A stretch of 64,000 nt of DNA from an uncultured Gammaproteobacteria bacterium. Lineage in GTDB: Bacteria > Pseudomonadota > Gammaproteobacteria > Steroidobacterales > Steroidobacteraceae. How positions within the stretch are numbered: the stretch's first letter is position 1; each line of letters starts with the position of its first letter. Positions 19,589 to 48,492 of this stretch are shown piece by piece. The stretch lies in the NCBI GenBank assembly GCA_963805965.1, contig CAWDVQ010000011.1, positions 235,802 to 299,801 of the forward strand, read 5' to 3'. A program made the translations under genes and the position numbers. The notes beneath the pieces are model-generated. The model had not been told where the DNA came from. It made no database searches and saw only the letters and a program-made list of their open reading frames with translations.

Positions 19589-20275
19589 ATGTGCGGCCGC
19601 TACATCACCAAGGATCAAAGGGCGCTCGAGCGCGAACTGCCGTTTCTCGACGTCAAGCACTGGCCGCAGTTCGAGGCCAGCTACAACCTCGCGCCGACCC
19701 AGCCGGCGCCGGTGGTCATCGCGAGCCCCGGCGGCAACGTGTGCCAGCTGATGCGCTTCGGGCTGATCCCGTTTTTTGCCAAGGGCGTGCCCGGCAAATA
19801 CAGCACCATCAATGCGCGCGTCGAGACGATCGAGACCTCCGCGGCCTTTCGCGGTCCGTGGAAGCGCCAGCAGCGCTGCCTGGTGCTTGCCAGCGGTTTC
19901 TACGAGTGGCATCTGCTGCCGGATGGCAAGAGCAAGCAGCCGTATTTCATCAAGCCGGCCGATCAGGACAGCTTTGCGTTCGCAGGTCTGTGGGACACGT
20001 CGAAGGCCGATGACGGCACCGTCATCTACAGTTTCACCATCATCACGCTGCCGGCGTCGCCGTTGATGGCGCAGATCCACAACACCAAGCAGCGTGAGCC
20101 GGCGGTGCTGAGCGCCGCGGGCTGCCGGATCTGGCTTGGCGGTACGGCGGAGCAGGGGTGTGAGCTGCTGCGCCCCTATCCCGATGATCTCCTGGTCGCA
20201 TGGCCGGTCAGCAGGCGTGTGAATTCGCCGGGCAACAATGACGCGCAGCTGCTACAACCGGTGGAAACTGCATGA
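19589..20275 (+). CDS. SOS-response-associated peptidase (SRAP/YedK family)
   Basis: N-terminal MCGRY with catalytic Cys2. Also YNLAPTQ, MRFGLIP.FAK, INARVET, FYEW and PAVL motifs. Confidence 0.9.
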   Translation: MCGRYITKDQRALERELPFLDVKHWPQFEASYNLAPTQPAPVVIASPGGNVCQLMRFGLIPFFAKGVPGKYSTINARVETIETSAAFRGPWKRQQRCLVLASGFYEWHLLPDGKSKQPYFIKPADQDSFAFAGLWDTSKADDGTVIYSFTIITLPASPLMAQIHNTKQREPAVLSAAGCRIWLGGTAEQGCELLRPYPDDLLVAWPVSRRVNSPGNNDAQLLQPVETA

Positions 20276-20337
20276 CCGCACCGATTTGCGTGCCGACTCG
20301 CGCGCCGAGGCTATGACGTGGCCGCGGGTTACGCATC

Positions 20338-21621
20338 ATGCCGTTGACGATCATCACTACCACCTGGCCGTTGCTGCTTGGCATGGGTGTGCTGATGCTG
20401 GGCGCCGGCCTGCAAAGCACGGTGCTCGGCTTGCGCGCGACACTGGAAGGATTCCCCACGCCGGTCACGGGCGCGATCATGTCCTGCTACTACGTGGGGT
20501 ACCTCGCGGGCACCGTCGCTGCGCCGCGCATGCTGCGCCAGATCGGGCACATCCGCGTGTTCGCCGCACTGGCGGCGGTGGCTTCGGCAGCAGCTCTGGT
20601 GCAGGCGCTGTTCGTGCACCCGTTTGCCTGGGGCGCGATGCGTGCGACTTCCGGCTTGTGTTTCGCCGGCATCTACGTCGTGGCCGAGAGCTGGCTCAAC
20701 GATCGCGCCAGCCGTGCCAATCGCGGCCGCCTGCTCGCGGTCTACATGCTGGTGCTGTACATCGGTCTCGGTTCCGCCCAGTTCCTGCTGATCCCTTCCA
20801 ATCCGAGCACCCCGGCGCCGTTCATGCTGGTCTCGGCCCTGATCTGCCTGGCGATGGTTCCGATTGTGGTCTCGGCACGCCAGGCACCGGAACCGGCACT
20901 GCCGAGCAAAGTGCGCTATCGCGACCTGTATCGGAATTCCCCGCTCGGCGTGGTGGCGGTCGCCATCTCAGGCCTGATATCCGCGATCATCTTCTCGATG
21001 GGTCCGGTCTATGCGCGCCTGAGCGGCATGGCGACGGCCGACGTCGCCACGTTCATGGCGCTGAGCATCTTTGCCGCCGTGCTGACGCAGTATCCGATCG
21101 GCCGGCTGTCCGATCGTATCGATCGGCGCACCGTGATCGCTGGCATCTGCAGCGTGGCCACCGCGCTGGCGGCCGGCATTGCTCTGTTTGGGGGCATGCC
21201 GCGGCTGCTGTTCCTGGCACTCTCGGCGCTGTTCAGCGGCTTCGTGCTGACGCTGTATTCACTGGCCATATCGCACGTCAACGACAAACTGGAACCGGCA
21301 CAGACGGTTGTGGCCAGCAGTGCGTTGCTGCGCCTCAATGGCACCGCTGCGGCCGCCGGGCCGCTGCTCGCCGGCAGCTTGATGGCGGCTTTCGGACCGG
21401 CGGCGTATTTCGTCACGCTCGGATCATTGACCGGGACGCTGACGATTTACGACCTGTGGCGCAAGAGTCGACGCCGGCCGGTGCCCAGCGCACTGAAGGG
21501 GCCGTTCATCAACGTGCAGCCGCAGGGCATGACCGGTCAGATCGCAGCCGGACTCGACCAGCGGCCCGAGCGGCCGCCCGGGGCCGTGACCGAAAGGCGC
21601 GCCCGGGTGCGCGACGGCTGA
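20338..21621 (+). CDS. MFS transporter (YcaD-like)
   Basis: 427-aa ORF with 12 predicted hydrophobic segments. GYLAGTV..PRML..IGHIRVF and ESWLNDRA..ANRGRLLAVYM motifs. Confidence 0.8.
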   Translation: MPLTIITTTWPLLLGMGVLMLGAGLQSTVLGLRATLEGFPTPVTGAIMSCYYVGYLAGTVAAPRMLRQIGHIRVFAALAAVASAAALVQALFVHPFAWGAMRATSGLCFAGIYVVAESWLNDRASRANRGRLLAVYMLVLYIGLGSAQFLLIPSNPSTPAPFMLVSALICLAMVPIVVSARQAPEPALPSKVRYRDLYRNSPLGVVAVAISGLISAIIFSMGPVYARLSGMATADVATFMALSIFAAVLTQYPIGRLSDRIDRRTVIAGICSVATALAAGIALFGGMPRLLFLALSALFSGFVLTLYSLAISHVNDKLEPAQTVVASSALLRLNGTAAAAGPLLAGSLMAAFGPAAYFVTLGSLTGTLTIYDLWRKSRRRPVPSALKGPFINVQPQGMTGQIAAGLDQRPERPPGAVTERRARVRDG

Positions 21622-21654
21622 TGAACGCAGGCCAATGAACGCGCGCCAGGGCGG

Positions 21655-24066
21655 TCAGCTACGCATGCGCCTGCCGTCAGGATCGAAGGCTGGCGCGCCC
21701 AGCCGCACCGCTGCGCAGCGCTCGCCGATCAGCTCCACTTCGAACCCGGTGGAGTGGGGCGCGACTTCACGAGTCACGTAGCCCAGCGCGAGCGATTTTC
21801 GAACGCTGTGCCCGTAGCCGCCGGAGGTGACCCAGCCGACCACGCGGCCATCGTGCCAGATCGGCTCATCGCCGATCGCGTCGGCATCGCGCGCCGCCAC
21901 CTCGAGCGTGATCAGGCGCCGCTCGCCGCCGCCGGCCTGTGCCGCGACCGCGGCGTCGCGACCGACGAACTCGCCTTTGTTCAGGTCGACGAAGCGGCCG
22001 AGGCCGGCTTCGTACGGGCTGTAGATCGGGCGGTATTCGCGCGCCCAGGTGCCAAAGCTTTTTTCCAGGCGCATGGCATGCAGGGCGCGGCCGCCAAAGT
22101 GGCGCAGCTGGAGCTTATCGCCCGCCTGTGTCAGCAGCTCGAACAGCGTGCGTTGATAGTCGGTGGTGACCCAGATCTCGTAACCCAGATCGCCGGTAAA
22201 TGAAATGCGGCCGACCAGCGCCGGGACCATGCCAACGTCCAGTTGCCGAAAGCTCAGGAATGGAAACGCCGCGCTCGACAGGTCCGCATCCACCAGCGAC
22301 TGCAGCAGGTCGCGCGAGCGCGGACCGGCCAGCGACAGGCCGACGTATTGCATCGCGCACGGGCGCAGGCTGACACCGCTCGCGGGCATGTGGCGCTCGA
22401 ACCAGCGCAGGTAATAGCGCTCGGCCGCGTAGGTGCCGATGAGAAAGAATCGCTGTTCGGACAGCCGGCACAGCGTGAAATCGCCGATCAGTCGGCCGCG
22501 CTCGTTGAGCATCGGAGTCAGCGTGATGCGACCGACGGCCGGAACACGATTGGCCATGATGGACGACAGCCAGGCGGCCGCGGCCGGCCCGCTGACCTCG
22601 AACTTGCCGTAATTGGAGATCTCCAGCAGCCCGACCGCCTCGCGCACCGCGCGGCATTCCTCGCCGACCACCGCATGAGCGTTGGAACGCCGGAAGCTGA
22701 CGGTCTCGTGCGGCGCGCTGCCCTTGGGTGCGAACCACAGCGGGTGCTCGAGTCCGCAGTATTCGCCGAACACGGCGTTTTGCGACTGCAGTCGCTCGTA
22801 GATGGGTGTGGTGCGCAGCGGCCGGGCCGCGTCCAGCTCCTCGTTTGGAAACCGGATGCGAAAACGCCTGGAATAATTTTCACGCACCTTGGCATTGGTG
22901 TAGGCAGGCGTGGCCCAGTCGCCGTAGCGCGCCACGTCCATGCCCCAGATGTCGGCGCCGGGATCGCCATCGACCATCCAGTGCGCCAGCGCCAGTCCGA
23001 CACCGCCGCCCTGGCTGAAGCCGGCCATGACGGCGCAGGCCACCCAGTAGTTGGCGAGCCCAGGCACCGGGCCGAGCAGCGGATTGCCATCCGGAGCGAA
23101 GGTGAACGGGCCGTTCACCACTTTGCGGATGCCGGCACTGGCCAGCCGCGGAAAGTGTTCGAAGGCCACTTGCAGGCTGGGTGCTATGCGCTCCAGATCG
23201 TTGGGCAGGAGGTCCTGGCCGAAATCCCACGGCGTGGTGCGCGGCGACCACGGCACCCCGGCGCGCTCATAGGTGCCCAGCAGCATGCCGCCGCGCTCCT
23301 GGCGCATGTAGATCTCGCCCTCGAAATCGATACAGTGCAGCTGCTCCTTCTGGCCTGCGAATTCCGGCAGGTCCTCGGTGATCAGGTACTGGTGCTCCAT
23401 TGCCAGCACCGGCAGCGTAAGGCCCACCATGCGGCCGACCTCGCGCGCCCACAGCCCCGCGGCATTTACCACGTGCTCGGCGTGTACCGTGCCGCGCTCG
23501 GTGATGACATCCCAGCTGCCATCGGGGCGAGCTTTCATGTCCAGCACGCGTGTCTGGCGGTTGATCTCCGCCCCGGCGAGCTGCGCCGAGCGGGCATAGG
23601 CATGGGTCACGCCGTACGGATCGACGTGGCCCTCGATCGGGTCATAGATGGCGCCGACGAAATGCGCCTCATCGAGCAGCGGATAGATCTTCTTGGCCTC
23701 CGCGACCGACAGCAGCTGCAGCTCCATGCCGAGGTAGCGGCCGCGCGCCTGTGCCATCTTCAGCCAGTCGAGCCGCTCGGGCGTACCGGCCAGCAGGATG
23801 CCGCCGTTGACGTGCGCGCCGCACGACACACCCGAGATGCGCTCGATTTCCTGGTATAGCCCGATGGTGTACTGCTGCAGCTTGGCGACGTTGGGGTCGC
23901 CATTGACGGTGTGCATGCCGCCGGCGGCGTGCCAGGTGGAGCCTGAGGTCAGCTCCGCGCGCTCGATCAGCATCACATCGCGCCAGCCGGCTTTGGTGAG
24001 GTGATACAGCACGCTGGCGCCAACCACGCCGCCGCCGATCACCGCTACCCTGGTGTGTGTCTGCAT
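21655..24066 (-). CDS. dimethylglycine/sarcosine dehydrogenase-family flavoprotein (DAO domain + GcvT THF-binding domain), paralog 1
   Basis: 803 aa. VAVIGGGVVGASVLYHL dinucleotide fold, SGSTWHAAGGMH (covalent-FAD His context), and a C-terminal aminomethyltransferase-fold region (ISFTGDLGYEIW). Confidence 0.88.
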   Translation of the reverse strand: MQTHTRVAVIGGGVVGASVLYHLTKAGWRDVMLIERAELTSGSTWHAAGGMHTVNGDPNVAKLQQYTIGLYQEIERISGVSCGAHVNGGILLAGTPERLDWLKMAQARGRYLGMELQLLSVAEAKKIYPLLDEAHFVGAIYDPIEGHVDPYGVTHAYARSAQLAGAEINRQTRVLDMKARPDGSWDVITERGTVHAEHVVNAAGLWAREVGRMVGLTLPVLAMEHQYLITEDLPEFAGQKEQLHCIDFEGEIYMRQERGGMLLGTYERAGVPWSPRTTPWDFGQDLLPNDLERIAPSLQVAFEHFPRLASAGIRKVVNGPFTFAPDGNPLLGPVPGLANYWVACAVMAGFSQGGGVGLALAHWMVDGDPGADIWGMDVARYGDWATPAYTNAKVRENYSRRFRIRFPNEELDAARPLRTTPIYERLQSQNAVFGEYCGLEHPLWFAPKGSAPHETVSFRRSNAHAVVGEECRAVREAVGLLEISNYGKFEVSGPAAAAWLSSIMANRVPAVGRITLTPMLNERGRLIGDFTLCRLSEQRFFLIGTYAAERYYLRWFERHMPASGVSLRPCAMQYVGLSLAGPRSRDLLQSLVDADLSSAAFPFLSFRQLDVGMVPALVGRISFTGDLGYEIWVTTDYQRTLFELLTQAGDKLQLRHFGGRALHAMRLEKSFGTWAREYRPIYSPYEAGLGRFVDLNKGEFVGRDAAVAAQAGGGERRLITLEVAARDADAIGDEPIWHDGRVVGWVTSGGYGHSVRKSLALGYVTREVAPHSTGFEVELIGERCAAVRLGAPAFDPDGRRMRS

Positions 24067-24102
24067 GCCGGGCGTTTGCTGTGGCTGACGCGCGTGAGCG
24101 TT

Positions 24103-24162
24103 ATGGTGGGCGTCATGGTGGGCGTCATGGTGGGCGTCGTGGTGGGCGTCGTGGTGGGCGTC
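24103..24162. repeat. perfect 12-nt tandem repeat, 5 copies, in the mttB-1/DMGDH-1 spacer
   Basis: atggtgggcgtc x3 then gtggtgggcgtc x2, with degenerate copies upstream (24079-24102). On the minus strand, in the frame of both flanking genes, it reads (DAHH)5. Confidence 0.95.
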
Positions 24163-24177
24163 TGGGAGTTGCGCGCA

Positions 24178-25767
24178 TCAGCTCACCGGAGGCGCGCCGC
24201 CGGCGGCGATGCGGCGTGCCACGTAGTCGTCCAGTGCCTCGACCACCGCCGGATCGCGCACCGGCGGCACGTAGTTCCTGAGCGTGTCCTGCCACAGTGT
24301 GCTGGCACGCTCGGTCGCGGTGTGCGAACCGGCCTCGGTCCACTGGCCGAAATTGCGCCAGTCGGAGACCAGCGGGGTGTAGAACGCGGTGCGGTAGCGC
24401 GCCATGGTGTGCGCGCAGCCGAAAAAGTGTCCGCCCGGGCCGACTTCCGCGATCGCCTCGACCGCCAGGTCATCGCCGCTGGCGGCAAGCGGCTGAAACA
24501 CCTCGGCAAACATCTGCAGCATCTCGATGTCGAGCATGAACTTCTCGTACGAGGTGGTCAGGCCGCTCTCGAGCCAGCCGGCCGCATGCAGCAGGAAATT
24601 GCAGCCGCCCATGAGCGCGCCCCACAGGCTCATCTGCGATTCGTACGCCGCCTGCGCGTCGGGCGCATTGGATGCGGTGGCATTGGAGGAGCGCCACGGC
24701 AGGCCGATATGCCGCGCCAGCTGGCCGGCGCCGATCGAGGACTTGACGTACTCCGGAGTGCCGAATGCCGGTGAGCCGGATTTCATATCGACATTGGAGG
24801 TGAAGCTGCCGTACACCACCGGCGCGCCGGGGCGCACGATCTGTGACAGCACGGTGCCAGCCAGCGCTTCGGCGTGGGCCAATGTGAGCGCGCCGGCAAC
24901 GGTCACCGGCGCCATCGCCCCGGCAAGCGTGAACGGCGTGATGATGAACACCTGTCCGGCGGCGGCGAACTCGAGGATGCCGTTGCCCATCGGGATGTCG
25001 AGCTGCAGCGGCGAGTTGGTGTTGATGATGGTGGACACGTACGGGCGCGAGCGAAATTGCTCCGGCGTCAGCCCGTACGCAATCCTGATCAGCTCGAAAT
25101 TGTCCGCGATCTGCGGTGAGCCGCGCGAGTAAATCTTGGGAATCTTGTCGGTCAGCAGCAGCATTGCGCGCGCAGTCTCCAGGTGCCGGAACTGTACCGG
25201 TACGTCCTGCGGTTCGACGCCGCCGCCAAGCACGTGGATCACCTCGAAGCTCTGGCACAGCTTCATGATGTTGCAGAAGTCCTCCATGGTGCCGGCGCGC
25301 TTGCCGCCCCTGGTGTCCATGATGTTCGGCGGTCCGGAGGTCGGCGCAAATACCACGTGGCGCCCGGAAATCGGCATGCTGTGCTCCGGATCCCTGGCGT
25401 GCAGCGTGACTTCGCGCGGCGCCGTGGCGAGTGCAGCTGCCACCAGGCCGCGGTCAACGCGCACCATCATCGATGATTCATCGACGCTGGCGCCGCCCCT
25501 GGCATAGGTGTGGCGGGCCTCAGGCAACAGCACCCGCATGCCCTGGTTCTCCAGCACGCCCAGCGCCGCCTCGTGGATGGCCGCGACCTGGTCGTCCGAG
25601 AACACCTTGAGCGGCTCGAACGGGTTGACCAGGTGACGGTAGCTGCGGGTGCGATCCACCACCGGCGCGCTGGCCGCGGCTCCAGGCGGCCGCCGCCGTG
25701 GCCGCCGCTCGACGCGCGCGCCGGATTCGCCGGCGCCGATGAGTGCAGCGGCGGGCTCGTCAGTCAT
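24178..25767 (-). CDS. MttB-superfamily (non-pyrrolysine) quaternary-amine:corrinoid methyltransferase, paralog 1
   Basis: Uninterrupted ORF. IITPFTLAGAMAPVTVAGAL, GSFTSNVDMKSGSPAFGTPEY, LHAAGWLESGL and GPGGHFFGCAHT are typical of the trimethylamine-methyltransferase (MttB) fold. Start chosen at MTDEP, which gives an 8-nt overlap ATGACTGA with the lysR stop. Confidence 0.88.
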   Translation of the reverse strand: MTDEPAAALIGAGESGARVERRPRRRPPGAAASAPVVDRTRSYRHLVNPFEPLKVFSDDQVAAIHEAALGVLENQGMRVLLPEARHTYARGGASVDESSMMVRVDRGLVAAALATAPREVTLHARDPEHSMPISGRHVVFAPTSGPPNIMDTRGGKRAGTMEDFCNIMKLCQSFEVIHVLGGGVEPQDVPVQFRHLETARAMLLLTDKIPKIYSRGSPQIADNFELIRIAYGLTPEQFRSRPYVSTIINTNSPLQLDIPMGNGILEFAAAGQVFIITPFTLAGAMAPVTVAGALTLAHAEALAGTVLSQIVRPGAPVVYGSFTSNVDMKSGSPAFGTPEYVKSSIGAGQLARHIGLPWRSSNATASNAPDAQAAYESQMSLWGALMGGCNFLLHAAGWLESGLTTSYEKFMLDIEMLQMFAEVFQPLAASGDDLAVEAIAEVGPGGHFFGCAHTMARYRTAFYTPLVSDWRNFGQWTEAGSHTATERASTLWQDTLRNYVPPVRDPAVVEALDDYVARRIAAGGAPPVS

Positions 25768-26728
25768 TCGATACCGCAAGGCGCACCGGCGCATCCTCGG
25801 CGCTCCGGTGCGGACCAAAATGTTCAATCAGCCAGGTGCGAAACAGCGCGACGGCGGTATCGCTCAGCGCCTCGGGCTGCGTGATCAGGTAATACCCGTA
25901 GCCATCGTCGAGCGAGACCTCGAACGGTCGCACCAGGCGGCCGGAGCGCAGTTCCTCGGCAAACAGATTCACGTCCACCAGCGCCAGCCCTTCACCGCTG
26001 AGGGCGTATTCGACCGCCAGCAGCGCGGTATCGAAAATCACTCCACGCTCGAAATTGATCTGGCCCAGGTTCGCCTGGCGCGCCAGCTGCGTCCAGACGT
26101 GGTGGCGCTCCTGGTCGGCGATGCGCACGTGGATCAGCTCGTTGTCGCGGATGAAACTGCCCAGCTCCTTGCCGGCATGGCGCGCGGCGAGTTCCGGATG
26201 GCACAGGATCGACAGCTTCACCGGCCACAACAGGTCGCTGACGTACTCGGTGACCGCGGGTTTGGAATACACCACCGCCACATCCACATCGCTGGGTGGC
26301 GGCCCGACGCCATAGGGGCTGACCAGATCGAGCTCGATGTCCGGGTTGGCGCGACGAAAATCGCGCAGCACCGGCACCGCCAGCCGCACCGCGAAACTCG
26401 GCGGCATCTGCACGTGCAGCGTGCGCAGCGTCGGGGCTCCGGCATTGCGGATTTCATCCAGCGAGTACTCGAGCCGGTCAAACGACTTGATCACGGTGGG
26501 CAGCAGGTGCTGTCCTGCCTTGGTGAGCACCAGGGCATGCGGCCGGCGGTCGAACAGTTGCACGCCGATCAGCTTCTCGATCGAAATCACGTGGCGCGAC
26601 AGCGCGCTCTGCGAGATGCGCAGCGCATTCGCGGCCGCGGTGAAGCTCGCGTGCTTGGCGACTGCTTCGAATGCGCGCAGCGCGTTCAGCGGCAGCCAGC
26701 GCCGGTCGATGCGTCCTCTGTTGGGCAT
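25760..26728 (-). CDS. LysR-family transcriptional regulator (GcvA-like)
   Basis: LPLNALRAFEAVAKHASFTAAANALRISQSALSRHVISIEKLIGVQLFDRR HTH, followed by a LysR substrate-binding domain. Track ORF trimmed to MPNRG. Confidence 0.9.
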   Translation of the reverse strand: MPNRGRIDRRWLPLNALRAFEAVAKHASFTAAANALRISQSALSRHVISIEKLIGVQLFDRRPHALVLTKAGQHLLPTVIKSFDRLEYSLDEIRNAGAPTLRTLHVQMPPSFAVRLAVPVLRDFRRANPDIELDLVSPYGVGPPPSDVDVAVVYSKPAVTEYVSDLLWPVKLSILCHPELAARHAGKELGSFIRDNELIHVRIADQERHHVWTQLARQANLGQINFERGVIFDTALLAVEYALSGEGLALVDVNLFAEELRSGRLVRPFEVSLDDGYGYYLITQPEALSDTAVALFRTWLIEHFGPHRSAEDAPVRLAVSND

Positions 26729-26939
26729 GGGTGTTCCCGTAAGATCCTTTGGGCCGGCAGCGCCGCGCCGGACGGTGGCGCGCACACATTCTAGCTCCGC
26801 GCCAGCCGGCCGCGCTCGAGAGTGCGGCAACGCCGGCCCTCAAGGCCAATGCCTTTTATTGATGCGGCCGATGCATTTTCTCGGTCTGGAGTCAGCGCTC
26901 GATCTGTGGAAGTATCGCCTGCCACTCAACGGATGGGTC

Positions 26940-47382: not shown

Positions 47383-48492
47383 GTGAGCACCCCAGACCTG
47401 AGCGTGGAGCAGCTCGACAAGCGCTTCGCTGATCACGTGGCGGTCGACCGGCTGTCGTTCGCGGTCGAGCGTGGCAGTTTTTTCTCCATTCTCGGGCCGT
47501 CCGGCTGCGGCAAGACCACGCTGCTGCGGATGATTGCCGGATTCACGCTGCCCGACAGCGGCGACATCCGCATCGGCGGCCACAGCATGCGCGAGGTCGC
47601 TCCCAATCGCCGCCCGGTCAACATGGTGTTCCAGCATCTGGCGCTGTTTCCGATGATGTCGGTGGGAGAGAACGTCGGTTTCGGCCTGGCGCGGCGCGGG
47701 GTGAACAAGGCCGAGCGCACGCGCCGGGCCGCAGCCATGCTCGAGCGCGTGGGCCTGGCAGGGGCTGCCGGCAAACGGGTCGAGGAACTGTCGGGCGGAC
47801 AGCGCCAGCGGGTCGCAATCGCCCGCAGCCTGGTGCTCGAGCCGACACTGCTGCTGCTCGATGAGCCGCTGGGCGCACTCGATCTGAAGTTGCGCGAACA
47901 CATGAAAATCGAGCTCAAGCAGCTGCAGGCGGCCTTCGGCACCACGTTCGTCTACATCACGCACGACCAGTCCGAGGCGCTGGTGCTATCGGACCACGTG
48001 GCGGTGATGAACCGCGGCCGTTTCGAGCAGATCGGCACCCCGCAACAGCTCTACTACGAACCGGCCACGGCGTTCGTCGCCGGCTTCGTCGGTGCCAACA
48101 ATCGCATCCCCGGGCGCGCAGTGAGTGTCGACGGCGAAGTGGTGGAGCTGCACACGCCGCAGGGTTGGTCGGTGCGCGCCCGTCGCAGTGGAGCGGTTGC
48201 GGCGGGAGACTCAGTCGCGGCGTTCGTACGCCCGGAAGTCGCCAGCATCGAGCTCGACGCCGCGCAGCTGCCGCCGCAGATGCTGCGCTACGCGGGCGAA
48301 GTCCAGAGCCTGCTGTTCGATGGCGCCAACTCCGCGGTGCTGATCGTGGAACAGCAAAGCCGCTTCGAATTTCGCGTCGCGCTGCCACAGACCGGGCGGC
48401 TGGCGGACCTGAAAACCGGCGCGCAGGTATTCTTTGGCTTCGATCCGCAGCGCGCGATCTGCTTCACCGCCGCCGGCAGCACCCATGTCTGA
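47383..48492 (+). CDS. ABC transporter ATP-binding protein (PotA-like, with C-terminal TOBE-type region)
   Basis: Walker A GPSGCGKTT, LSGGQRQRVAIARSL, LLLLDEPLGALD. Confidence 0.9.
   Translation: MSTPDLSVEQLDKRFADHVAVDRLSFAVERGSFFSILGPSGCGKTTLLRMIAGFTLPDSGDIRIGGHSMREVAPNRRPVNMVFQHLALFPMMSVGENVGFGLARRGVNKAERTRRAAAMLERVGLAGAAGKRVEELSGGQRQRVAIARSLVLEPTLLLLDEPLGALDLKLREHMKIELKQLQAAFGTTFVYITHDQSEALVLSDHVAVMNRGRFEQIGTPQQLYYEPATAFVAGFVGANNRIPGRAVSVDGEVVELHTPQGWSVRARRSGAVAAGDSVAAFVRPEVASIELDAAQLPPQMLRYAGEVQSLLFDGANSAVLIVEQQSRFEFRVALPQTGRLADLKTGAQVFFGFDPQRAICFTAAGSTHV

Follow-up and report, generated by a model that had tools for sequence, protein, structure and literature searches.

In the aerobic glycine betaine demethylation clusters of the MtgB type (MtgBCD; PMC12478193), a pfam06253 gene without pyrrolysine stands beside genes for later demethylation steps, a co-location that is reported there as frequent. 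The locus described here has the same layout, and neither a fusion of MtgB with a dimethylglycine dehydrogenase-type protein (DMGDH) nor a repeat is described for those clusters. Several known systems offer likenesses to the junction between the two genes. In readthrough of the Qbeta A1 type and in selenocysteine recoding, an in-frame UGA is followed by an open frame, as it is here. Bacterial intergenic VNTR or minisatellite loci likewise consist of short units set head to tail in noncoding DNA between co-directional genes; they are defined by copy-number polymorphism within a species, whereas the array reported here is known from one assembly. The MIRU-type repeats of mycobacteria are intercistronic (e.g. 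in the senX3-regX3 spacer), 40-100 bp long and dispersed at dozens of loci. The published criteria for rut sites, finally, are a tract of 70-80 nt or more that is free of ribosomes, unstructured, rich in C and poor in G, and in which cytosines recur at intervals of 11-13 nt (PMC6407284). A literature search for intercistronic tandem repeats with translational coupling found no usable precedent.

The window analysed here is a stretch of 64,000 nucleotides from a soil-dwelling gammaproteobacterium with close relatives that bear the name Steroidobacteraceae (genome 3.6 Mb; assembly 91.7% complete, 11 contigs). Three genes on its minus strand form one string, with a LysR-family regulator gene at the head (25760..26830; Pfam HTH_1, 3e-20; LysR_substrate, 4e-20) whose stop overlaps the first codons of mttB; in relatives a LysR gene likewise lies immediately upstream of mttB. 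The mttB gene (24178..25767) runs from a likely ATG at 25767 to a TGA at 24180-24178 and encodes an MtgB-like member of the MttB superfamily without pyrrolysine, presumed to be a glycine betaine methyltransferase; it matches the Pfam profile PF06253 (MTTB) at 1.9e-195 over positions 4-499 of 500, and a search of the gene for an in-frame TAG found none. The protein ends in GGAPPVS, and the canonical ending GGAPPV[ST] is found in almost all genus relatives, the exception being one distant relative with a 49% identical C-terminus. The DMGDH gene (21655..24066; 803 aa; Pfam DAO, FAO_M, GCV_T and GCV_T_C) starts at ATG 24066, with the Rossmann motif beginning five residues later and the DAO domain at residue 6, and its N-terminus MxTHxRVxVIGGG is conserved among homologues. 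Exactly 803 aa is the length of 114 of its best 120 homologues, and an N-terminal extension is found in none of the 120. To judge from their sequences, both genes are complete and canonical; the idea of a recent gene fission or fusion, raised in a first-pass annotation of this DNA, finds no support in a canonical MttB end and an 803-aa DMGDH without N-terminal extension.

Between the two genes lies an untranslated intercistronic spacer of 111 nt (24067..24177, minus strand; C 55, A 27, G 22, T 7). The first-pass annotation had observed that the mttB TGA is in frame with the DMGDH ATG at 24066, that the 111 nt hold no in-frame stop, ATG, GTG or TTG, and that they encode CAQLP followed by (DAHH)5, and both coordinates and translation bear this out: read from 24177 to 24067 in the frame common to mttB and DMGDH, the 37 codons give CAQLP(DAHH)5NAHARQPQQTPG (in full, CAQLPDAHHDAHHDAHHDAHHDAHHNAHARQPQQTPG), with out-of-frame ATGs in or at the spacer at 24178, 24128 and 24116. 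Tandem Repeats Finder reports a single array of 69 nt on the minus strand (24094..24162; period 12, 5.8 copies, 94% matches, score 110). Its five units at 24103-24162, at first described as perfect repeats, are identical in peptide and not in nucleotides, two copies of GACGCCCACCAC being followed by three of GACGCCCACCAT; of the degenerate copies claimed for both flanks, the 3' one holds (AACGCTCACGCG, 7/12) and the 5' one is unconvincing. The genome has 31 short tandem arrays of at least four copies and a period of at least 6, and such arrays are thus not rare; the two-unit pattern, with 2 mismatches allowed, matches only this locus in its 3.6 Mb. Exact two-unit scans of genome and metagenome contig collections returned 24 and 45 loci, none of them near mttB or dmgdh; these are unrelated coding low-complexity tracts, either TTPT linkers or DAHH-type His-rich stretches of actinobacteria, myxobacteria and others. 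A search of the same collections for conspecific contigs found none, and the exact DMGDH protein of the window has no record elsewhere. An antisense ORF across the repeat (24001-24774) was set aside as spurious; it matches no Pfam family, and its GC pattern is 0.85/0.51/0.69, against 0.66/0.51/0.86 in real genes here.

The same-frame, stop-free state of the spacer is unremarkable. A random stretch of 51 nt, the spacer length in the sister species discussed below, is stop-free in 65% of cases at the composition of the window and in 85% at that of the T-poor spacer (7 T in 111 nt), and multiplication by 1/3 for the frame puts the chance of an in-frame, stop-free 51-nt spacer at ~0.2-0.3, in keeping with the caution voiced at the outset that such spacers are not rare in GC-rich DNA. 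Promoter and terminator scans of the mRNA strand between mttB and DMGDH found nothing, and Rfam, run on 23800-24500, found no riboswitch or known RNA, its sole match being a chance-level snoRNA (E 0.51). The lack of a Shine-Dalgarno sequence before the DMGDH ATG, also noticed at first sight, was confirmed, since the best anti-SD duplex reaches only -1.7 kcal/mol, compared with -7.5 to -7.7 kcal/mol in relatives with GAGGATCGGT. Translational coupling of the kind that works by overlap or near-contact of stop and start does not fit a distance of 111 nt. None of the features described here accounts for the initiation of DMGDH so far past the mttB stop with no Shine-Dalgarno sequence before its ATG.

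The question of a fusion was settled by comparison with a few dozen relatives. The comparison set holds ~30 distinct orthologous junctions from the same genus and from metagenome relatives named Steroidobacteraceae; mttB and dmgdh have stayed adjacent across many species of the genus, with a match in 33 of 76 genomes. The orthologous spacers measure 111, 84, 80, 76, 72, 71, 69, 63, 51, 50, 36, 29, 27, 27, 26 and 25 nt and, among the shorter ones, 24, 23, 23, 21, 18, 10, 10, 10, 9, 5, 3, 3, 2, 2 and 0 nt. All three stop codons (TGA, TAG, TAA) end mttB in this set, and the frame relation varies: it is broken between sister species (69 vs 71, 27 vs 26 and 51 vs 25 nt), out-of-frame spacers of 25, 50, 71 and 80 nt occur among the closest species, one relative's in-frame spacer carries TAG, and distant relatives have junctions of 0-10 nt (TAGtcATG, TAAggaccagttcATG, TGAATG). 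In-frame junctions account for ~14 of 25 genus junctions, more than one third, an excess weakened by shared ancestry and by very short spacers. Variable frames and stops within the spacer, which the first-pass annotation had itself named as evidence against a fusion by TGA readthrough, are thus both seen among the ~30 junctions, and a readthrough fusion is refuted as a conserved device.

Readthrough of the UGA, whether programmed or selected, that would produce a working MttB-(DAHH)5-DMGDH fusion and so channel the first two steps of demethylation is in our view highly improbable. The frame is indeed open from mttB into DMGDH, and in G027, the sister species, the spacer likewise keeps the frame and lacks a stop, but the frame relation is unconserved even among the closest species, as are the identity of the stop and the (DAHH)5 linker peptide. 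DAHH His-rich repeats do exist in real proteins of unrelated organisms; proteins that join MttB to DAO, however, number only three singletons (P0001-P0003) among 5.8 billion protein clusters, all frameshift-ridden, with long out-of-frame stretches on long-read contigs and, in one case, the order DMGDH-MttB, so that the search for fusion orthologues proposed earlier returned no genuine one. Where MttB is naturally fused in these clusters, the partner is a PF02574 (S-methyltransferase) or a RACo-like domain and not DAO or GCV_T, and the uniform length of the DMGDH homologues given above likewise speaks against an extended form. Background misreading of UGA must produce some fused chains. Among the four UGA contexts in E. 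coli termination, UGAU is the strongest and is not leaky; the mttB stop stands in this context, and by the E. coli signals it would not be leaky either. Among 31 ordinary stops counted here TGA leads with 19, and the TGAT context recurs in 6 ordinary genes of the window. Recoding by selenocysteine or by a suppressor was rejected, since a search of the 91.7%-complete assembly detected no tRNA-Sec, suppressor tRNA, SelB or SelB wing domain (aragorn reports no tca anticodon, and the RF01852 matches are four tRNA-Ser genes) and no SECIS-like hairpin follows the mttB UGA, the region being unstructured in fold prediction. In contrast to readthrough of the Qbeta A1 type, then, neither the frame nor the stop nor the extension is conserved here.

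Very probably, the 111 nt are an untranslated spacer with a lineage-specific repeat expansion, and not a fusion. In the sister species G027, mttB ends in TGA as it does here, and a 51-nt spacer with ~1.5 repeat copies, exactly 60 nt shorter, shares TGATGCGCGC and the 3' spacer end with the window; the spacer of the window equals that of G027 plus 5x12 nt, and the frame is therefore kept automatically. In L140, a metagenome relative, a 51-nt spacer between the same flanks likewise contains ~1.5 copies, so that the comparison of copy number called for earlier gives fewer copies in both. Protein identity to G027 is 94% over the last 200 MttB codons and 96.5% over the first 200 DMGDH codons, the flanking genes being 95-99.5% identical at codon positions 1 and 2 and ~80% at position 3. 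In the spacer there is a 60-nt indel, the 5' part is hardly alignable and, in the alignable 3' part, 2 of 3 substitutions lie at second positions of the DAHH frame; no peptide-level constraint on the spacer is indicated. Other spacers have grown independently, by tandem duplication of a 15-nt unit (2.9 copies) in G061 and of GATCTGGTTTCC/GATCTGATTCC in L137. As at VNTR or minisatellite loci, the units stand head to tail with high identity (94%), their variants are ordered, the sister species has fewer copies and a shorter spacer, and duplications occur at the same site elsewhere. Among the first suggestions, that of a slippage-prone repeat has fared best as far as its origin is concerned, with support from the ~1.5 copies of the sister species and from the independent duplications in the spacers of others.

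On this explanation, the ancestral 51-nt spacer would have been in frame and stop-free by chance. Its 12-nt motif GACGCCCACCAY, previously present in ~1.5 imperfect copies, would have gained five units in one species, most likely by replication slippage, and in at least two rounds because two units ending in CAC precede three ending in CAT. Since the unit length is divisible by three and no in-frame stop occurs in it, the expanded spacer stays in frame and reads (DAHH)5; the apparent linker follows from arithmetic and does not attest to a fused enzyme. MttB would terminate at the conserved UGA and DMGDH would initiate separately at the conserved ATG, with the fused chain expected only in traces from unavoidable background UGA misreading, in which case the junction peptide would read ...APPVS-W/C/R-CAQLPDAHHDAHH.... 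The lack of conservation suggests that the expansion is probably neutral or near-neutral. In these soil gammaproteobacteria the spacer at the mttB-dmgdh junction evolves fast, often lacks a Shine-Dalgarno sequence and grows by tandem duplication. The case also counsels caution, as an open same-frame spacer in GC-rich, T-poor DNA can mimic a fusion or readthrough device and a tandem repeat with a unit length divisible by three always preserves the fusion-like appearance.

An assembly artefact, be it in the copy number or in the array as a whole, appears very unlikely. The assembly does contain a 4.9-kb poly-T run (C6:332126-337061), suggestive of an artefact-prone long-read assembler, and the related long-read MAGs G029 and G094 have frameshift errors at this very junction; here, however, the flanking ORFs are intact, the array of 69 nt is shorter than ordinary reads, its ordered pattern of two unit variants is unlike collapse or stutter errors, and a proto-repeat lies at the same place in the sister species. 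An error at the TGA itself, which the first-pass annotation had listed among its alternatives, is likewise unlikely, with the mttB stop at a conserved position and TGATGCGCGC common to the sister species.

The expansion may still have consequences for expression. It would have more than doubled the ribosome-free distance between mttB and DMGDH, and its C-rich, G-poor, unstructured RNA with a 12-nt period could weaken re-initiation coupling, favour Rho loading and lower DMGDH relative to MttB. A stronger claim, that the expanded repeat is a functional and possibly copy-number-tunable rut site that sets the MttB:DMGDH ratio by intra-operon polarity, we consider unlikely. The spacer has the length, C>G composition, periodicity and lack of structure of rut sites (PMC6407284): the tract is untranslated, exceeds 78 nt, directly follows a stop and spaces its cytosines by an exact 12-nt period, its best 78-nt window counts 41 C against 11 G (C/G = 3.7; joint third among the genome's 59 extreme loci), and the repeat region folds worse than 193 of 200 shuffles (z-score +1.6). 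The genome encodes rho, and the ancestral 51-nt spacer lies below the length that Rho needs, a length which the expansion crosses. Such criteria are very unspecific, however, with 23,930 predictions in E. coli (PMC6407284), and the resemblance is one of composition only. Most orthologous spacers have C/G of 0.8-1.4; C>G is thus unconserved, and there is no sign of selection for C-richness. The boldest form of the idea, in which slippage made a near-ideal Rho-loading tract whose copy number would act as a heritable dial on polarity and hence on DMGDH per MttB, we regard as a long shot; if it were true, the independent expansions in other Steroidobacteraceae would hint at the junction as a recurrent tuning site. 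Spacers of 0 to 111 nt in any case provide a natural series in which spacing, re-initiation and Rho polarity can be set against enzyme ratios in betaine catabolism.

Two small out-of-frame ORFs on the minus strand led to a further reading. One, MRATP(RRPP)3 (24125..24178), begins with an ATG that overlaps the mttB stop (TGATG) and ends with a TGA that overlaps the next ATG (ATGA); the other, MTPTMTPTITLTRVSHSKRPACRHTPG (24045..24128), has its start within the repeat and its stop, a TAG, 19 nt inside DMGDH. A relay of such ORFs might hand ribosomes from the mttB stop to the DMGDH start without Shine-Dalgarno sequence, the 12-nt unit preserving both frames. This recalls the MIRU-type repeats, whose tandem units also lie between two operon genes and whose small ORFs overlap the signals of their neighbours so that ribosomes could be handed on; the unit here, by contrast, has 12 nt and occurs once in the genome, and the small ORFs are unconserved in relatives. 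The relay was conceived post hoc on seven genus relatives, a clade without Shine-Dalgarno sequence (support 97/94) in which 6 of 7 species have an ATG 12-49 nt past the stop. The ATG of DMGDH follows at a distance of 62, 38, 11, 68, 38 or 17 nt (in G084, 65 nt counted from a CTG), always 2 mod 3; downstream of the spacer ATG the lengths differ only by multiples of 3, which does not hold upstream of it, and the small ORF of G061 and of G072 terminates right at the start of DMGDH, on ATGA. Tried prospectively on five new metagenome spacers without Shine-Dalgarno sequence, the idea failed in 4 of 5, for only L137 has such an ORF, while L135, L136, L138 and L139 have none or one of 2 codons. The TAG at +19 arises from a GTA Val codon that is present with or without the small ORF, and a link of this rare codon (7.3% of Val codons) to the small ORF was rejected for the same reason. 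In nearly all relatives the relay frame stops by +25 anyway, from the conserved GTG-ATC (VIGGG) coding, and the small-ORF peptides are unconserved. A simpler reading is that upstream ATGs are tolerated only in a quickly terminating frame, and we think the relay very unlikely. MRATP(RRPP)3 has a 5-codon version in G027, is absent from other relatives and is probably incidental.

In both the MFE and the centroid fold, the repeat forms the loop of a predicted 11-bp stem without covariation, of which the 5' arm, GCUGAUGCGCG (24172..24182, minus strand), includes the mttB UGA and the 3' arm, CGCGCGUCAGC, lies at 24084..24094 on the same strand. The predicted accessibility of the DMGDH start site is 0.50-0.54 across 0-10 repeat copies and thus does not change with copy number. 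Both arms of the stem are also present in G027, where the loop is 21 nt.

The spacer lies in a string of three co-directional minus-strand genes, lysR, mttB and dmgdh, since the gene for a LysR regulator immediately upstream adjoins mttB, with its stop codon overlapping the mttB start. The mttB-family ORF (1.6 kb) runs from a likely start ATG at 25767 to a TGA at 24180–24178 and matches Pfam PF06253 over profile positions 4–499 of 500 (E 1.9e-195). The DMGDH-type ORF starts with the ATG at 24066 and encodes 803 aa with DAO, FAO_M, GCV_T and GCV_T_C domains, the DAO domain starting at residue 6; close homologues of this protein carry the source name Steroidobacteraceae. Proteins of pfam06253 without pyrrolysine are glycine betaine methyltransferases (MtgB) in aerobic bacteria, and genes for later demethylation steps frequently adjoin the MtgB-type genes (PMC12478193); as a gene pair, mttB and dmgdh are ordinary. 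On the mRNA strand of the gap no promoter-like or terminator-like site was present, and an Rfam search of the gap matched no family. Convergent with dmgdh is a 466-aa ORF (20238–21638, plus strand) that matches no Pfam family; the convergent neighbour in relatives is an MFS transporter. In some close relatives (contigs L141–L143, which encode the matched protein P0062) mttB is absent and the LysR TGA abuts the DMGDH ATG (TGAATG), so the DMGDH gene can be driven without an upstream mttB.

The spacer of 111 nt, or 37 codons, is in the same frame as both genes and reads CAQLP(DAHH)5NAHARQPQQTPG. Translation confirmed the report of the first-pass annotation that the mttB stop is in frame with the DMGDH ATG and that the spacer has neither a stop nor an in-frame start codon; the reported lack of a Shine-Dalgarno sequence before that ATG also holds (best anti-SD duplex −1.7 kcal/mol), the duplex in relatives carrying GAGGATCGGT being −7.5 to −7.7 kcal/mol. 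Tandem Repeats Finder (TRF) returns one array at 24094–24162 (minus strand), with period 12, 5.8 copies and 94% matches. The five full units described earlier are there and encode the same peptide, but at the DNA level they are two of GACGCCCACCAC followed by three of GACGCCCACCAT, and while the 3' flank is recognisable as the degenerate copy claimed, the 5' flank is not. The original observation is thus correct except for the word "perfect". The unit pattern has no second locus in the 3.6-Mb, 11-contig genome.

An open, same-frame spacer does not exceed chance. The spacer contains 7 T in 111 nt, and random 51-nt stretches were stop-free in 65% of trials at the composition of the window and in 85% at that of the spacer, as were real 51-nt segments drawn at random from the window in 74%. 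An ancestral 51-nt spacer would be both in frame and stop-free with a chance of about 0.2–0.3 (the stop-free fraction times one third for frame), and because the 12-nt units have no stop in this frame, added copies alter neither frame nor openness.

Orthologous junctions were compared among relatives in the genus and metagenome contigs reached through DMGDH homologues. The mttB-dmgdh order is retained in many species of the genus (match in 33 of 76 genomes), with spacers of 0, 2, 2, 3, 3, 5, 9, 10, 10, 10, 18, 21, 23, 23, 24, 25, 26, 27, 27, 29, 36, 50, 51, 63, 69, 71, 72, 76, 80, 84 and 111 nt. The stop codon of mttB is TGA, TAG or TAA, the frame relation between the genes is not constant, and one in-frame spacer has a TAG inside it. 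Sister species in the DMGDH tree are out of step (69 nt in G034 versus 71 nt in G091; 27 nt in G095 versus 26 nt in G088), and within one clade of that tree the spacer is 51 nt in G027, the sister species of the genome carrying the window, versus 25 nt in G031. About 14 of 25 genus junctions are in frame, above one third, an excess to which we give no weight since many are very short (3–27 nt) and related by descent. The MttB C-terminus, ...GGAPPV[ST], is common to almost all genus relatives; with the protein ending at the same residues, the TGA is a normal stop, and the suggestion of a sequencing or assembly error there is not borne out. Single-base frameshifts do occur in the last mttB codons or first dmgdh codons of two low-contig MAGs (L023 of G029, L113 of G094); they look like homopolymer-type assembly errors, and errors of this kind can make two genes be called as one fused gene that does not exist.

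G027 is the closest species (protein identity 94% over the last 200 MttB codons, 96.5% over the first 200 DMGDH codons). In its 51-nt spacer the TGATGCGCGC that follows the stop and the 3' end match those of the window, and between them is a proto-repeat, GACACCATGACGCCCACC, of about 1.5 imperfect copies; the window spacer equals the G027 spacer plus exactly 60 nt. The order of units, two with CAC and then three with CAT, requires two or more rounds of duplication. In G061 the same spacer (L108, 1718–1761) holds an independent tandem repeat with a 15-nt unit (2.9 copies, 89% matches), and in L137 an imperfect 12-nt doublet, GATCTGGTTTCC/GATCTGATTCC. The earlier proposal of a slippage origin is upheld by the G027 proto-repeat and by these other duplications, and the junction enlarges repeatedly through tandem duplication. 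The array ranks fifth by score among 31 found genome-wide by TRF with at least 4 copies and a period of at least 6, a real but unexceptional slippage product. Between G027 and the window the flanking genes agree at 95–99.5% of first and second codon positions and at about 80% of third positions, whereas the 3' part of the spacer, where it can be aligned, has three substitutions, two of them at second positions of the proposed frame; the spacer is thus not evolving as coding sequence.

Conspecific contigs, sought by two-unit repeat scans of genome and metagenome contigs and by the exact DMGDH protein, were not found. Outside the window, at C6:331970–337061 of the same assembly, a 156-nt poly-A run passes directly into a poly-T run of 4,936 nt. 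The assembler almost certainly introduced it; the assembly is thus not free of errors, and some caution over long-read artefacts is called for. That the unit variants are ordered, that both flanking genes are intact and that G027 has a proto-repeat nevertheless argue for a real array, the 5.8 copies being the number in the assembly.

Readthrough of the TGA into an MttB-linker-DMGDH fusion had also been proposed, as had gene fission or fusion. When the 1370-aa read-through product was searched against 5.8 billion protein clusters, admitting only proteins of at least 754 aa that share MttB words, MTTB and DAO occurred together in only three matches. Each is a singleton from a long-read metagenome contig and has long Arg/Gly/Pro-rich out-of-frame stretches, and one is ordered DMGDH-MttB; they were rejected as frameshift artefacts. 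Other MttB partners were PF02574 (homocysteine S-methyltransferase), in many metagenome proteins of 830–880 aa, and RACo-like or ferredoxin domains (PF14574, PF17650/1, PF00111), both among P0004–P0040 and P0041–P0046. Most of these clusters have one to few members (maximum 13), but as the architecture recurs in dozens of separate clusters of several different sources, these fusions seem genuine, in contrast to the MTTB-DAO singletons. A length of exactly 803 aa is shared by 114 of the best 120 DMGDH homologues, no homologue in this set is N-terminally extended, and the N-terminus MxTHxRVxVIGGG is conserved. By the criteria that the first-pass annotation itself set, the varying frames and stops in relatives and the lack of a true MTTB-DAO fusion among the clusters searched refute the first proposal, and the conserved MttB C-terminus and DMGDH lengths refute the second.

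Nor does the genome, which is 91.7% complete, provide for recoding: none of the tRNAs called by aragorn has a tca anticodon, a tRNA-Sec model matches only the four tRNA-Ser genes, and there is no SelB wing domain. Aragorn also makes two "tRNA-???" calls with two-base anticodons (C6:1164860–1164940, and 47770–47862 on another contig), and the assembly lacks several standard tRNAs (Trp, Tyr, Gln and Ile), as would fit rRNA-operon regions that failed to assemble. Among the long ORFs of the window, TGA is used more than any other stop (19 of 31), six times as TGAT; of the four UGA contexts in E. coli, the one with U as the next base terminates most efficiently. Background UGA misreading will leave traces of fused chain, as no further stop precedes the DMGDH end, and nothing suggests that such a chain is put to use.

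An 11-bp stem is predicted on the minus strand between 24182–24172 and 24094–24084, with the repeat in its loop and the UGA in the stem; G027 has these arms as well. At 0 to 10 repeat copies the start region keeps a predicted accessibility of 0.50–0.54, and 193 of 200 shuffles fold better than the region as a whole. On the mRNA strand the best 78-nt window, with 41 C and 11 G, shares third place among 59 extreme loci of the genome. Published criteria describe a Rho loading site as RNA free of ribosomes and structure, rich in C and poor in G over at least 70–80 nt, with cytosines every 11–13 nt (PMC6407284). The expanded spacer fits this description, whereas the ancestral spacer, at 51 nt, falls short of the length, and a rho gene is present; such loading criteria are very unspecific, however, and C-richness is not general among orthologous spacers, and we consider a functional Rho attenuator here unlikely. 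This leaves a fast-evolving intercistronic spacer in which a 12-nt unit has expanded in tandem, a lineage-specific change that is probably near-neutral.

Two small ORFs lie out of frame in the spacer. The first, which encodes MRATP(RRPP)3, opens with an ATG that shares bases with the mttB stop (TGATG); its own TGA shares bases with an ATG within the repeat (ATGA), and from that ATG the second, of 27 codons, runs to a TAG 19 nt inside DMGDH. They could act as a relay handing ribosomes from the mttB stop to the DMGDH start, and six of seven species of the clade without a Shine-Dalgarno sequence have an ATG at 62, 38, 11, 68, 38 and 17 nt from the DMGDH ATG, all 2 mod 3, the small ORF ending on ATGA at the start codon in two of the six. 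Yet in a prospective test on new contigs only one of five further spacers without Shine-Dalgarno has such an ORF, the TAG at +19 is present with or without one, and the same frame stops by +25 in nearly all relatives anyway, since GTG-ATC is conserved in the codons for the VIGGG motif. The relay, which we rate as highly improbable, was dropped after the one-in-five outcome. On a simpler view, upstream ATGs are retained only in a single frame, the one in which translation soon ends. Setting aside the TGATG ATG at the mttB stop, confined to the window genome and G027-type spacers, no ATG inside the spacers without Shine-Dalgarno opens a frame running far into DMGDH; all 11, spread over eight loci, are in the +1 frame relative to DMGDH, which ends within 25 nt of its start, a bias compatible with selection against harmful upstream ATGs.
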